From contig JABLTJ010000022.1 of NCBI GenBank assembly GCA_013166775.1, positions 1-56,439 of the forward strand: a stretch of 56,439 nucleotides of DNA, written 5' to 3'. The translations under genes and the position numbers were made by a program. Shown piece after piece: positions 16,298 through 23,215 of the stretch (position 1 is its first letter; each line of letters starts with the position of its first letter). The notes under the pieces are model-generated. The model saw nothing but the letters and a program-made list of their open reading frames with translations. It was not told where the DNA came from and searched no databases. This DNA comes from Promethearchaeati archaeon (GTDB taxonomy: Archaea > Asgardarchaeota > Heimdallarchaeia > Heimdallarchaeales > Heimdallarchaeaceae).

Positions 16298-17281
16298 TTA
16301 GAATCCCATTGTATTCAAAATGTGTTTTACTATCTTGAATTTATATCCTACATTAATAACATCGTTAACATTAGTAGTCATACCAATCAATAATTTACCT
16401 TCAGAACAATCCTCAACTATAATTTGCACTACTTCAGCGTTCAGTGCTTTTATTTCGTCTTCCGATCTAATCATCTCATAGATAACTCGTGGAAAATTGG
16501 TTATTGTTTCTAGAACATAGATAATCTTTCTCTCTTCAAGATTTCCTGCGTACAGCTCTCCCATTACTCCGTCTTCCTTTGGAAAAATATATGCGGAAGC
16601 AGAGGCTGCTTTACATCCCCTTATCGAAGAGAATAATAATGAAGTGATTGCTCTCTTATTTGCTTCATCAAGTATTTCCTGTGTCATCTCACTTGTAGGT
16701 ATTTTGGGTACTGTTTCAAACGGTCTTATTCTCTCATATGTTTCTAATCTGGCTTCCATTCTTTCTTGTTCTACTGTCTTTATCGTAGGAACAATCTCTT
16801 GTTCTTCAATCCCTCCAGTTGGAACAATCTCTTGGTCTAATTTCTCGATACCAATACGTGTAAAGACTTTATTCAACTCTTCCCTATAAGTAGCAACATT
16901 CTGGATTTTCTTTATAACGGTTTTTGTTAGATTGGAAGGAGTATCGTGAATTAAAGCATTTAGAATTGTAGATCCTAGTAATTTCACATATTCCAGAATT
17001 CTAGGTCTAATTTCTGCACCTATATTTTCAACTCGTGAAACAAATAAGATAGTTACATCAAAAAATGTGATATAAGTTGCCCTGTACTTTCCTCGAAATA
17101 TGGTGATTTCATTATACCTTCTTACCCATTGATAGAATTCAATAGGTTGGATGAAATATCTATGAACCTCTTCTTTTTCAAATTCATTAATAATTTGCTC
17201 TAATTCAAAAATATTAATACCTTCTAAATTATAAACAATTACTGCAACTAAAGGACTAATATCAATTTTAGGGAAAGGCAT
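16298..17281 (-). CDS. Hypothetical protein: longin-like N-domain + roadblock-like C-domain (paralog A)
   Basis: The C-terminal ~115 aa align by eye with the 17479 and 18794 proteins. The N-terminus VAVIVYNLEGINIF has a longin-like beta-hairpin pattern. Confidence 0.6.
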   Translation of the reverse strand: MPFPKIDISPLVAVIVYNLEGINIFELEQIINEFEKEEVHRYFIQPIEFYQWVRRYNEITIFRGKYRATYITFFDVTILFVSRVENIGAEIRPRILEYVKLLGSTILNALIHDTPSNLTKTVIKKIQNVATYREELNKVFTRIGIEKLDQEIVPTGGIEEQEIVPTIKTVEQERMEARLETYERIRPFETVPKIPTSEMTQEILDEANKRAITSLLFSSIRGCKAASASAYIFPKEDGVMGELYAGNLEERKIIYVLETITNFPRVIYEMIRSEDEIKALNAEVVQIIVEDCSEGKLLIGMTTNVNDVINVGYKFKIVKHILNTMGF

Positions 17282-17478
17282 AAGACCTCAACTAGAAATT
17301 ACTAGGTATTTTTTGCTAATAAATGTTGTTGGACATCACTTTATATTTAATTTTTAAAATAGAAGTGAAAAAAACACCTTTCCTTTGGCTTTTTATCTCT
17401 CTATTTCATTATTTTAATGTACGAATACAAAGGAAATATTTTTAGATTTTAGTGATATAATCAGTTTGAGGATAAATA

Positions 17479-18060
17479 ATGAGCTCAAAGAAGAAATCAG
17501 ATGAATCTCTATCAAGCAATATTATTACAAGAAAAAGAAAAGTTCCTAAAAAAGATCTTTTTGTTGAAATGGAAGAAACTGCATATGAGACACTAAACAT
17601 CTCCAAAAGAAAAATACAAACTGGTCAGTATCTAAAAGAATTCCTAAAAGAAACTTCTTCAGCTGAAGCTGTTATAGAAGCTATACGCGTTACCATAGAC
17701 GCCCTTCTAGATAGTATAGCATCTGATTTGAGATCTTTATCAGCTGCCGCCTTAGTTCCACACCCCGAAAGCACAGAAACCAAAGCTATTGTCAGAGGTC
17801 CTTTAAGCAGAGACATTGTCAAAAAAATTCTAGGGATTTTTAGAAAATATCCTCCTGTTATAAACGATTTACTGGGATCAGACGAAGAAGTAAAATTTCT
17901 AGATACTGGTATTGGGTATGTAGTTCTGGAAAACTGCCAGAAAGACAATTTTCTTGTCGGGATAGTACAAAAACAAAAAGATGTGGATGAGCTCTCAAGA
18001 AAATTGAGGCATGTACAAAATGTTGTTGTAGATAATACTCTTCTAATCGAAGAATTGTAA
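17479..18060 (+). CDS. Hypothetical protein with roadblock-like domain (paralog B)
   Basis: IDALLDSI...ILGIFRKYPPVINDLLGSDEEVKFLDTGIGYVVLE...FLVGI...ELSRKL. Confidence 0.6.
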   Translation: MSSKKKSDESLSSNIITRKRKVPKKDLFVEMEETAYETLNISKRKIQTGQYLKEFLKETSSAEAVIEAIRVTIDALLDSIASDLRSLSAAALVPHPESTETKAIVRGPLSRDIVKKILGIFRKYPPVINDLLGSDEEVKFLDTGIGYVVLENCQKDNFLVGIVQKQKDVDELSRKLRHVQNVVVDNTLLIEEL

Positions 18061-18075
18061 ATTAACTCATTTTTT

Positions 18076-21079: not shown

Positions 21080-21277
21080 GATGTAATCACTTAGTTGAAA
21101 TTAAGGAATCTCTACTCACAATACAACTCATATGTTATTAAATTTTTTTAAACTCTAAGTGAATACTATCAGAGAGTCACAATTAATTAAATATCATCTA
21201 CAAGTTCTTATGTTGTTGTTTATCTAATTTCTGCTAATAATAAACTAAACTTTAATAATCTAACAAATAATTATAAT

Positions 21278-22327
21278 TTGATGAACTCTTCTGTGAAGCC
21301 ACTGTTAATCCAACTAGTTAGTTCTTTCTCCTATTATCTTGTAGATGAAGCACGTAAAGAAATGGGAAGCGAAATTACAGAAGTTAAAATAGATGATATT
21401 GAATACTACAAAGCTAGTGGGAGATTTGGAGATGTGTATGTAGTAGACGTTTTTTATACATCTGTAGTGGGAAAACACAAAAGTAAACTTGCGATTAAAT
21501 TCATTGAAAGCTCAATTGACGTAATAACAGAGATAAAAAATTCATCATTTCTTGAAAAAAAATTCTCAACTCGATCATTCGTTCAAGTTCCAAGATATAT
21601 CTATGTGAATCTGAAACAACCTACTTTTATAGCATATGAAGGCATAACAGGAGTAAATTATGAAGATGCTGATAGCGTTCTTAATAAAAGTTTCTGGGCA
21701 GGATATGTTTTATCCATAATTCATGAAGGAAAAGCTAGGTCAGTCATTGCTGATATTTATGAAGAATTATATCGAAGATTAATTCTAACTATTTTTGGAG
21801 GAGAAGAAATCGAGCAAGAAATAATGGAAAAATCTAAAGATCTTCTTGAGATGGTGACAAATTCTCAAGGTGGAAGTGATTCTTTCGGAGATTATCATCA
21901 AAGCAATTTAATGATAAGAACAACTCCTCAAGGAGAAATAGTTAATATTGCTATTATAGATCCAACATTCTGGATGCAAGGATCATTTGACCGTTTTGAG
22001 GATATAGGTACATTCTTTGGAAGACAAGCTTTACTCGAATATCGAACATCAAGGACTCTGATAAGCACTATCTCTGATATTAAGCAATTTATAGAAGGAT
22101 ATAATGTTCATCTAAAAGAGATAAATAACGTCCATCTGGAAAAGTTGTATCCAAAAGGCTATCCAATCGATTTCTTTCTTTCAATTTGGGCTATGATGGA
22201 TATTATAGATAAAACTAGCACACTGAATATTCCAGTTGACCATCCAGACGTTGTTCTATTGAAAGAATTAGCGATAAATTTCTTAACAGAACATCCAATA
22301 AGCAGCGAAGTTAACACTTTTCTTTAA
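21278..22327 (+). CDS. Protein kinase-like (PKL/APH) fold protein
   Basis: Gly loop SGRFGDVY, LAIK lysine, catalytic loop FGDYHQSN, metal-binding IIDP. Confidence 0.75.
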   Translation: MMNSSVKPLLIQLVSSFSYYLVDEARKEMGSEITEVKIDDIEYYKASGRFGDVYVVDVFYTSVVGKHKSKLAIKFIESSIDVITEIKNSSFLEKKFSTRSFVQVPRYIYVNLKQPTFIAYEGITGVNYEDADSVLNKSFWAGYVLSIIHEGKARSVIADIYEELYRRLILTIFGGEEIEQEIMEKSKDLLEMVTNSQGGSDSFGDYHQSNLMIRTTPQGEIVNIAIIDPTFWMQGSFDRFEDIGTFFGRQALLEYRTSRTLISTISDIKQFIEGYNVHLKEINNVHLEKLYPKGYPIDFFLSIWAMMDIIDKTSTLNIPVDHPDVVLLKELAINFLTEHPISSEVNTFL

Positions 22328-22372
22328 CAAGGGGAAAAAATTTAAAGAATCAATGAGATAATGAACTGAAGA

Positions 22373-23215
22373 ATGACTCAATACAGAAAAGAAATCCTGA
22401 TTTCTCCATATGTTTTAGCAAAGATATTGTCAGTAGATTCTATAGAGCCAACTAAAGAGTCTGCGGGTGTTCTTCTAGGTTATTTGGATGAGGACGGAGA
22501 AACGTTAATTGTAACAGATTTTGATACAGGAAGTCAAAAACAAACATCTACTTTTGTTACCCTAGATGATGAAGCTCTTGTTCAGATTGTTGAAGATTTA
22601 CAGAAAAGAGAAAGAAATGAAACAATTGTTGGTTGGGCTCACACTCATCCATCTTTTGGTTGTTTTCTCTCAGGAACAGATAAAAATACTCAACGAATAT
22701 ATCAGAATCTGTTTTCACATGCTGTTGCACTTGTTGTAGACCCCTCTAAATACTATAACACTTCACAGCAAAAAGATTTGGAAATCCAATTTTTCAGATT
22801 AATCGATGATCTTGATTACAAAGCTGTTCCTTACGGGATTTACTTTGATGATATTACTCAACATTTATCCAATTTAGTAGAGGTTGATATTAAATGGGAT
22901 ATTCCACAACTTACAAAGGAAGAAGTCAGAAAACTTCATCAGAAATTGGAAACCATTGTCTCTCCAAAACTTCTTGAGAATGATAAGATGTTGCTTCATG
23001 GTTTTGTTGATATACTAAGTGAGTCAAAAGAAGAGCTGGTGGATGTTGGAGAAGGTAAGGAAATATTGGAATCTATTGATAAGAAATTAAGCATTATTGG
23101 TGATAATGTTAATCAAATATATAACGAAGAAACATTCAATCTTTATGCTGTTCTCAATATTATTGCTGTTGTTATAATAGCAATCTCTTGGTTTTTGATA
23201 GCTTTTTTCATTTGA
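22373..23215 (+). CDS. JAMM/MPN+ metalloprotease (Rpn11/AMSH-like) with C-terminal membrane anchor
   Basis: ESAGVLLG and VGWAHTHPSFGCFLSGTD (intact E...HxH...S..D), AVALVVDP; tail LYAVLNIIAVVIIAISWFLIAFFI. Confidence 0.9.
   Translation: MTQYRKEILISPYVLAKILSVDSIEPTKESAGVLLGYLDEDGETLIVTDFDTGSQKQTSTFVTLDDEALVQIVEDLQKRERNETIVGWAHTHPSFGCFLSGTDKNTQRIYQNLFSHAVALVVDPSKYYNTSQQKDLEIQFFRLIDDLDYKAVPYGIYFDDITQHLSNLVEVDIKWDIPQLTKEEVRKLHQKLETIVSPKLLENDKMLLHGFVDILSESKEELVDVGEGKEILESIDKKLSIIGDNVNQIYNEETFNLYAVLNIIAVVIIAISWFLIAFFI

Follow-up and report, generated by a model that had tools for sequence, protein, structure and literature searches.

Predicted longin/roadblock paralogues beside a kinase and tail-anchored JAMM protease gene pair in Heimdallarchaeaceae: one system or two separable modules?

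Introduction

Do seven contiguous genes in a Heimdallarchaeaceae genome encode one membrane-associated system, or do two separable modules stand there side by side? The genes occupy positions 16298-23215 of a 56,439-nucleotide stretch from a Promethearchaeati archaeon (GenBank assembly GCA_013166775.1, contig JABLTJ010000022.1, positions 1 to 56,439), referred to here as the window. Their products are three proteins that share a C-terminal domain (P1, P2 and P4, together the trio), a two-transmembrane (2-TM) zinc-ribbon protein (ZnTM), a long acidic protein, a kinase-like protein and a JAMM protease. A sequence-only reading of the window had described the same seven open reading frames (ORFs), the coordinates of which match ours exactly, and had proposed that they form a single hetero-oligomeric platform regulated by phosphorylation and deubiquitination.

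Longin and roadblock domains build membrane GTPase platforms in eukaryotes, among them TRAPP, Mon1-Ccz1, Ragulator, GATOR1 and folliculin. The partners of longin and roadblock proteins in Asgard archaea are hard to assign because the genes are rarely linked to one another or to GTPase genes (PMC10933270). Full-text literature searches found no published description of the trio, of the tail-anchored JAMM protease or of the kinase-JAMM pair, and a paper on closed Heimdallarchaeum genomes mentions roadblock/LC7 genes only in general. We propose, with about even confidence, that the interval consists of two adjacent, separable modules with the roles set out below: module A (16298-21079), which holds the trio, ZnTM and the acidic protein, and module B (21278-23215), which holds the kinase and the JAMM protease. 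New here are this two-module split, the wider distribution of the tail-anchored JAMM and the kinase, an older fourth paralogue of the trio and the conserved islands of the acidic protein.

Conservation of the gene neighborhood

All seven proteins and their flanks were mapped onto loci from every genus of the Heimdallarchaeaceae (family f1; genera g1 to g5, the window belonging to g1). Within g1 the whole ~20 kb is collinear and carries little information. The two closed genomes of g5, one of which has its matching proteins named Candidatus Heimdallarchaeum aukensis by NCBI, retain the order JAMM-kinase-acidic-P4-P2-P1-AIRS-Bud32 with ZnTM absent and a different flank on the JAMM side. The same block without ZnTM is present in g4, where P1 is followed by genes for an ABC ATPase and for the RING protein of the window and the FolP side is inverted. 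Genus g2 keeps acidic-P4-ZnTM-P2-P1 intact between new flanks on both sides, one of them PvlArgDC-PKD. In one g2 genome (G002) the kinase-JAMM pair shares a contig with the trio but lies 37 kb away from it; in another (G003) the pair is on contig C17, with P4 and the acidic gene on a different, 8-kb contig. The g3 genes are shuffled yet linked: P2, acidic, P4 and kinase stand together in one genome, and P2, a HAD hydrolase gene, P4 and P1 in a relative. The acidic-P4-P2-P1 block therefore outlasts at least three changes of flank, and throughout the family, in all five genera, kinase and JAMM stand side by side without the pair ever being split.

The pair was also found outside the family. Four trio-less genomes of family f4 have a kinase homologue (30–34% identity) adjacent to the JAMM gene or one gene away, at a distance of at most 2 kb, and at one of these loci (L050, from a different f4 genus than the remaining three) the two are direct neighbors, arranged and oriented as they are in the window. 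Eight loci with a JAMM gene were examined outside f1, and all of them lack the trio genes. The kinase-JAMM pair therefore predates the trio and occurs without it, which is our chief ground for dividing the seven-gene module in two.

The proposal of one integrated system, a membrane-bound longin/roadblock platform whose assembly or output would be controlled by the kinase and by JAMM deubiquitination, fares poorly under this comparison. The pair is independent in g2 and is conserved in f4 without the trio, ZnTM is missing from three of the five genera, and the kinase is of a small-molecule type (see below). Linkage of the pair to the trio was seen in four of five genera, against three of five for the unrelated housekeeping block Kae1-rSAM-Bud32-AIRS; being no stronger than the linkage of that block, it may be inherited gene order. 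What speaks for a single system is that the seven genes are contiguous, with two divergent promoter regions conserved in g1, g4 and g5 and a rearranged yet adjacent arrangement in g3, that orthologues with at least 50% identity, whichever of the seven families is taken, occur in this one archaeal family only, and that two of the products are membrane-anchored. On balance we consider one system unlikely. Nothing in the data supports a dependence of module A on module B. Synteny across relatives had been suggested as a check of the sequence-only reading, and a conserved neighborhood was indeed found for each sub-module, whereas the link between the sub-modules largely fails this check.

Could the whole neighborhood reflect nothing but shared descent, with unrelated lineage-specific genes lying together in a young family that is still collinear? 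The ~20 kb of collinearity within the genus and the housekeeping flanks kept in three of five genera would fit such an explanation, as would the origin of all the evidence in one family. It does not account for the acidic-P4-P2-P1 block, which survives at least three independent flank changes, or for the kinase-JAMM pair, which survives relocation within f1 and divergence to 30–34% identity in f4. Each sub-module thus goes beyond background synteny, and we regard shared descent alone as very unlikely. Module A is a persistent cluster, specific to Heimdallarchaeaceae, of paralogous longin/roadblock proteins and a disordered partner; what is conserved in module B is the pairing of an APH-type kinase with a tail-anchored MPN+ protease, the two genes being linked in two families of the order.

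Three paralogous proteins with predicted roadblock and longin domains

P1 (16298-17281, minus strand, 327 amino acids), P2 (17479-18060, plus strand, 193 amino acids) and P4 (18794-19864, minus strand, 356 amino acids) have in common a C-terminal domain of ~122–125 residues. BLASTP aligned this domain at 27% identity between P1 and P4 (E 2e-15), 28% between P2 and P4 (E 5e-11), and 25% between P1 and P2 (E 3e-10). Alignment of the P1 and P4 family profiles by hhalign gave an E value of 2.8e-15 over the C-domain only, and homology between the two N-domains was not detectable by hhalign of the two families. Since hhalign aligns the C-domains only, the longin identity of both P1 and P4 rests on structural models. 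No Pfam match to Robl_LC7 (PF03259) was obtained for P1, P2 or P4 at E≤1; in a whole-genome search PF03259 detected seven other loci, six of them above the cut-off and none in the window.

AlphaFold2 models were made for P4 with an alignment of 38 homologues (mean predicted local distance difference test, pLDDT, 71) and for P1 with 24 sequences (pLDDT 74). In both models two folded domains are divided by a segment of 45–75 residues with pLDDT below 50. The P4 model consists of a longin domain (residues 10-144), a disordered linker rich in Pro, Thr, Ser and Glu (146-221) and a roadblock domain (229-355); the P1 model has a longin-like domain (~10-145), a disordered linker (150-194) and a roadblock fold (~200-327). 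DSSP assignment of the C-domains of P4 (223-351) and P1 (201-325) gave the order alpha-beta-beta-alpha-beta-beta-beta(-alpha), which is that of roadblock proteins. The P4 C-domain matched a Streptomyces Roadblock/LC7 protein (3leq, Z 10.3), Mon1 (Z 10.3) and MglB (Z 9.6), as well as RagC, the Loki Rag C-domains and solved Asgard roadblocks (Z ~9.3). The P1 C-domain matched Mon1 (Z 11.0), MglC (Z 10.2) and the LokiRag C-domain (Z 9.6). For the shared domain, MglB scored 9.5–9.6, and the Asgard roadblocks and Rag C-domains ~9.

The predicted N-domain of P4 follows the longin order beta-beta-alpha-beta-beta-beta-alpha-alpha. Its matches were delta-COP (Z 11.4), the AP2 mu N-domain (Z 11.3), VAMP7 (Z 10–10.2) and synbindin (Z 9.6), with AP-3 sigma and CPLANE (Z 9.3) as further matches, and Foldseek and ESM Atlas searches with P4 returned the same families. 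The P1 N-domain (10-125) has the strand and helix order of longins and reached only Z 7.6–8.2 (AP-3 sigma, LAMTOR3, VAMP7 longin), a range that is common by the reckoning of the search tool. On these models P4 clearly carries an N-terminal longin domain and P1 probably does. Longins of the Folliculin/NPRL2/SMCR8 type, which act in GTPase-activating proteins (GAPs), have a GP motif and an arginine finger around the first two longin strands (PMC12290439). No Gly-Pro or conserved Arg was seen in the region of strands 1 and 2 of P4 (11-28) or P1 (13-28) on inspection by eye, without alignment to the GAP longins.

The P2 gene is transcribed away from P1. Its product has a basic N-terminal region of ~60 residues, probably disordered, followed by a single domain (60-193) for which homology to the modelled domains of P1 and P4 suggests the roadblock fold. 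P2 is the best conserved protein of the trio, with 59–78% identity across genera. BLASTP, hhalign and the models agree with the sequence-only reading in giving a roadblock-like domain to three of the genes; that two of them would also carry a longin domain had not been stated.

Distribution and origin of the trio

A collection of 5.8 billion proteins contains 66 homologues of P4 at 47–89% identity, and every one that carries a source name is from Heimdallarchaeaceae or Heimdallarchaeota. A profile of the shared domain searched against 1.84 billion representatives detected 19 proteins in total. Seven are the trio itself or its nearest relative, and about ten are weak matches to two-domain proteins of 336–377 amino acids, one of them named by JGI as a Roadblock/LC7/MglB-family regulator; no canonical roadblock protein was reached among these representatives. 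Across 83 genomes of the class, the three-copy cluster was found only in f1, in 28 of 30 genomes and in all five genera, always as three co-located copies. P1 orthologues were present in 27 of the 30.

A fourth, distant paralogue of the longin-roadblock type (304–338 amino acids) is encoded in the genome from which the window comes (G000:C72:34238-34615; L047:8215-9129, minus strand), and also in some genomes of f1, f2 and f4. It always follows arcTGT-like (DUF5591-PUA) and radical-SAM genes, to which it is convergent in its own genome, and an f2 locus (L012) and a 1.1-Mb metagenome contig (L046) show this gene order too. Linkage to a kinase, JAMM or GTPase gene is not seen for the fourth paralogue. 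One match in an f2 genome (G001) was considered as a trio orthologue and rejected, because its arcTGT-like and radical-SAM order is that of the fourth paralogue on contig C72. A distant relative, P0171, gave a sub-threshold Pfam match to Intu_longin_1 (E 0.0026). Triplication of an older single-copy gene of the longin-roadblock type, still present on C72, is the probable origin of the trio, which could illustrate the way in which duplication gives rise to multi-subunit longin/roadblock platforms. Its confinement to a single family marks the trio as a lineage-specific elaboration and not as the ancestor of a eukaryotic complex.

The acidic protein and ZnTM

The acidic protein (19922-21079, minus strand, 385 amino acids) contains 27.5% Asp plus Glu and has an isoelectric point (pI) of 4.34, apart from a basic tail at residues 331-385 with a pI of 10.5. 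It bears out the earlier description of a long acidic disordered protein. Four conserved islands (~1-35, ~70-107, ~160-190 and ~312-365) are separated by variable acidic repeats rich in Glu, Pro and Val. Among eight aligned orthologues the invariant positions were W12, G73/A75/A77, I104-P105-x-P107 and a C-terminal block YSAV..G.ES..N.K.W, and the protein always ends in a run of Lys and Arg across genera; the acidic gene of L013, for which no clean translation was obtained, was left out. Its gene is directly upstream of P4 in all five genera.

ZnTM (18076-18729, minus strand, 217 amino acids) has hydrophobic segments at ~100-155 and a C-terminal CWxC...CPxC, both of which are kept in its orthologues, in line with the previous assignment as a 2-TM zinc-ribbon protein. 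Pfam gave sub-threshold zinc-ribbon/RING matches only. The gene is found in g1 and g2 and is absent from g3, g4 and g5. It is fast-evolving, with 27–30% identity between its orthologues in a genus where P2 keeps 73–78%, and we treat it as accessory.

The kinase

The kinase gene (21278-22327, plus strand, 349 amino acids; APH/choline-kinase-like, ELK-fold) is the first of the module B pair. Its ORF is listed from a TTG at 21278; the ESM Atlas record begins at residue 2, and the ATG at 21281 is the likelier start. Across 23 homologues K74, D205, H207, N210 and D228 are invariant, with D205-x-H-x-x-N210 as the catalytic loop. Five of the 23 were recognized by Pfam APH (best E 2.6e-6) and three by ABC1; the window kinase itself was below the threshold (ABC1, E 0.053). 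Its neighbors by protein language model were the APH and choline-kinase clusters. The family profile found no solved relative among the PDB sequences, the only matches being chance ones to ribosomal proteins. No Pkinase match was obtained for the window kinase, in contrast to the nearby Bud32 gene (14492-15187), which matched Pkinase at 9e-11.

We assign the enzyme by these sequence signatures to the small-molecule (APH/choline kinase) type rather than to the Hanks-type protein kinases. The kinase fold named by the sequence-only reading was therefore upheld in the form of an APH/ABC1-type protein with invariant catalytic residues, and a Hanks-type protein kinase was not. With a kinase of the small-molecule type, the proposed regulation of the platform by phosphorylation becomes conjecture.

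The tail-anchored JAMM protease

The last gene of the interval (22373-23215, plus strand) encodes a tail-anchored MPN+ protease of 280 amino acids. Pfam, NCBIfam and PADLOC scans of all seven proteins recognized its JAB domain alone (55.4 bits against a cut-off of 22.5, E 6.7e-15). An Rpn11-like catalytic domain (residues 6-145) is followed by a helical stalk of ~100 residues and a C-terminal transmembrane (TM) helix (~253-280). The motif E...HxHx7Sx2D is intact, with the Glu in ESAG and then HTHPSFGCFLSGTD, and was intact in all 12 aligned tail-anchored homologues. The closest solved relative was an Rpn11-like protein (6fjv/6fju, E 1.2e-24), which we take to be that of Caldiarchaeum subterraneum, followed by Rpn11 (3e-17), CSN5 (~1e-13) and AMSH (8e-10 to 5e-5). 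The tail-anchored JAMM reported earlier is thus supported by the JAB match, the intact motif and a TM helix conserved in all orthologues, and the membrane association that had been expected of the locus agrees with two membrane-anchored products among the seven. The likeness to AMSH gave way to the closer Rpn11-like match, AMSH scoring 8e-10 or weaker.

Tail-anchored JAMM proteins of 278–312 amino acids, with the motif, the stalk and a C-terminal hydrophobic helix, were found in f2, f3, f4 and f7 at 30–40% identity, so that the motif and the TM tail are conserved in five families with f1 included. Families f5 (0 of 22 genomes) and f6 yielded no such protein. The window genome has one other JAB gene, which is soluble and lies in an E2/RING/ubiquitin-like cluster on contig C102; the window JAMM is an extra paralogue, predicted to be membrane-bound. 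A second ubiquitin-like gene is on contig C27, and with two ubiquitin-like genes in the genome candidate deubiquitinase substrates exist.

Some observations on the surroundings of these genes may be added. The ubiquitin-type cluster, of the canonical Asgard kind (C102:~21000-26400; L048:5171-10368), separate from the window JAMM, comprises an E2 (UQ_con 3e-27), the soluble JAB protein of 235 amino acids, two RING-type proteins and a ubiquitin-like gene of 118 amino acids. Three f4 loci of one genus (L049:4439-8117, L052:7586-11269 and L056:7607-11239) have a PilB/T2SSE-type secretion ATPase between kinase and JAMM (515 amino acids; Pfam T2SSE 6.6e-38 in L049). In two f7 genomes (L051:8018-10119 and L054:6504-8176) the JAMM gene adjoins a 242-amino-acid HEAT-repeat protein (HEAT_2 ~1e-33), with no kinase homologue nearby. 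The JAMM of L056 also adjoins proteins with weak P-loop kinase-type Pfam matches (AAA_18; Cytidylate_kin2), compared by Pfam match only, and the window has two divergent genes for P-loop proteins of ~300 amino acids (8771-9724, minus strand, and 9869-10762, plus strand; AAA_18, weakly Zeta_toxin-like). PADLOC and NCBIfam JAB-type matches (Cap3, desampylase, 6A-MBL) were far under their cut-offs, and a known defense system is not indicated.

Organization of the locus and its surroundings

There is no overlap among the seven ORFs. From spacing and strand they probably form four transcription units: acidic-P4-ZnTM, P2, P1(-AIRS-like-Bud32) and kinase-JAMM. The spacers within the first are 57 and 64 bp, the acidic gene coming first and ZnTM last. 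P1 is followed after 77 bp by a gene for an AIR-synthase-like (AIRS) protein and then by Bud32, and the kinase-JAMM spacer is 45 bp. The two divergent intergenic regions measure 197 bp (P1/P2) and 198 bp (acidic/kinase). Since modules A and B adjoin at a divergent promoter region that they share, they may be co-regulated in most Heimdallarchaeaceae.

Housekeeping genes flank the interval on both sides: Kae1, a B12/radical-SAM enzyme, Bud32 and the AIRS-type protein on one, and a CofE-like ligase, FolP and a GHMP kinase on the other. A mobile island was considered and rejected, as the base composition is flat across the window, there is no tRNA gene, and the locus lies amid conserved housekeeping genes. 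Three DNA sequencing runs from marine sediment, perhaps those behind the assembly, contain the stretch, and no RNA run is listed for it. The sequence-only reading had noted that no small GTPase or ubiquitin gene is present, and we agree: none was found among the window ORFs scanned with Pfam (~37 of 50), and whole-genome searches with Ras, Gtr1/RagA and ubiquitin models, the Arf model not being run, gave no match on the window contig (C56). Nor was a GTPase or ubiquitin gene found in the trio flanks of g2, g4 and g5 or in the g5 JAMM flanks that were scanned.

Elsewhere in the window, a 691-amino-acid protein with a C-terminal RING finger (zf-RING_2 9e-6) is encoded at 30360-32435 (minus strand); in g4 this gene and that for the ABC ATPase stand directly beside P1, as against ~13 kb away in the window. 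A SepF-like gene (37717-38085, plus strand, 1.1e-6) adjoins a TFIIB gene (36627-37583, plus strand). Further along come a primase small and large subunit pair (42175-44512) and a Y-family polymerase. All of these belong to the usual housekeeping set of archaea.

Proposed mechanism and its alternatives

A conserved cluster of roadblock/longin paralogues with an acidic protein makes a hetero-oligomeric platform a reasonable proposition. The roadblock and longin domains of P1, P2 and P4 would pair with one another to give a heteromeric assembly, in the manner of Mon1-Ccz1, Ragulator and MglB. The acidic protein would bind this platform via its conserved islands and reach the membrane with its polybasic tail, by analogy with LAMTOR1/Ego1. 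The platform might in turn dock a small GTPase or regulate it; model searches detected more than 30 members of the Ras superfamily in other parts of the genome. The JAMM protease would face the cytoplasm at the membrane and remove ubiquitin or a ubiquitin-like modifier from membrane-proximal substrates.

Several points weigh against this reading. In no genome examined is a GTPase gene linked to the trio, yet a canonical Robl_LC7 gene of the same genome (C72:10683-10949, 2.9e-20) stands beside a Ras-superfamily GTPase gene (11047-11556) as an MglB-MglA-like pair. An odd number of roadblock domains fits poorly with the known dimer-of-dimers platforms, and the analogy to LAMTOR1 is built on disorder, conserved islands and a basic tail only. 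GAF/IclR-type ligand-binding domains also match the C-domain (Z 8–9.6), a resemblance that makes a role other than with GTPases conceivable. Finally, the genomes are metagenome bins of 72–95% completeness, and 24 of the 30 are from one genus; drawn from one family in this way, the conservation counts are not independent.

The trio could accordingly consist of adaptor or cargo-binding modules, like the sigma/mu adaptins and SNARE longins, or of small-ligand sensors of the GAF/IclR kind, with the acidic protein as client or regulator. The best matches of the P4 N-domain, the adaptin, COPI and VAMP7 longins at Z 10–11.4, point this way together with the GAF and IclR effector domains. It is nevertheless the roadblocks of GTPase platforms (Mon1, MglB/MglC, Rag C-domains and LAMTOR) that the shared domain matches most closely. 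Asgard GTPase genes are in general not in operons with roadblock/longin genes (PMC10933270), and the missing linkage, set against the canonical roadblock gene that adjoins a GTPase gene here, consequently weighs little either way. We judge a trio without a GTPase function to be rather improbable and prefer the heteromeric GTPase platform.

The most far-reaching reading is that the trio and the acidic protein form a membrane-tethered platform like Ragulator or Mon1-Ccz1 for an Asgard GTPase of the Rag, Arf or Rab kind, and that in Heimdallarchaeaceae it is controlled together with a membrane-anchored deubiquitinase and the kinase of the latter. We hold this to be highly speculative and its truth quite improbable. 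If true, it would provide an archaeal analogue, open to experiment, of the coupling between GTPase platforms and ubiquitin editing on eukaryotic endolysosomal membranes. Short of that, module A is a candidate complex of three co-located paralogues and a conserved disordered partner, all of them small, soluble proteins that lend themselves to co-expression. A tail-anchored Rpn11-like protease in five Heimdallarchaeia families suggests editing of ubiquitin-type signals at the membrane and bears on the proposed ubiquitin-ESCRT link.

Comparison with known systems

JAMM proteases and kinases of known type are the nearest relatives of module B. The MPN+ domain with its complete E...HxHx7Sx2D motif is shared with Rpn11/PSMD14 and 6fjv/6fju; unlike Rpn11, the window JAMM has a stalk of ~100 residues, a C-terminal TM anchor and an APH-type kinase as partner, and it lies outside the ubiquitin/E2/RING cluster. 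AMSH/STAMBP is a JAMM enzyme that acts at a membrane surface, with a similarity to the window protein that is detectable and far weaker than that of Rpn11/CSN5. No MIT or other ESCRT-binding domain was found by Pfam in the window JAMM, whose association with the membrane would be through its own predicted TM helix and not through ESCRT-0/III. Like the APH/choline-kinase/ABC1 families (PF01636, PF03109), the kinase has an invariant Lys for ATP binding, the catalytic loop D-x-H-x-x-N and, further downstream, the Asp that binds metal. To our knowledge, a conserved pairing with a JAMM protease is not a feature of those families.

As to module A, Mon1-Ccz1, Fuzzy-Inturned/CPLANE and HPS1-HPS4/BLOC-3 consist, like the trio, of multi-domain paralogous partners of the longin/roadblock type, and theirs heterodimerize domain by domain. 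For the C-domains, a Mon1 chain (9rs7_A, residues 366-525) ranks first or joint first among the structural matches, with Z 10.3–11.0 and a root-mean-square deviation of 2.5–2.9 over 112–113 residues. These tri-longin RabGEFs have three domains per subunit and come as two paralogues. P1 and P4 have two domains, with a long disordered linker where the middle one would be, P2 has one, and the paralogues number three; the trio has no Pfam TLD (Fuz/Intu/Mon1 longin) match and is confined to one archaeal family.

MglB/MglC, the canonical Roadblock/LC7 proteins and the roadblocks of Prometheoarchaeum and Thorarchaeota have the same fold as the modelled trio domain (Z 9.3–10.2), whereas the trio domain is unseen by PF03259, is fused to a longin domain and has no adjacent GTPase. 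Ragulator and EGO resemble module A: in each, several paralogous roadblocks go together with a partner that is disordered over most of its length and has one end for membrane targeting. In those complexes LAMTOR1/Ego1 is disordered and membrane-anchored and wraps the roadblock dimers. LAMTOR2/3 and the C-domains of RagC and LokiRag match the trio at Z 8.5–9.6, but no sequence relationship to LAMTOR proteins was detected, and the trio has no Rag gene linked to it. Where LAMTOR1 has a lipidated N-terminus the acidic protein has a polybasic tail, and a wrapping role for the latter would be by analogy. Taken together, the two modules are variants, in the archaeal group nearest to eukaryotes, of longin/roadblock platforms and of JAMM isopeptidases, with functions that we infer from these likenesses.

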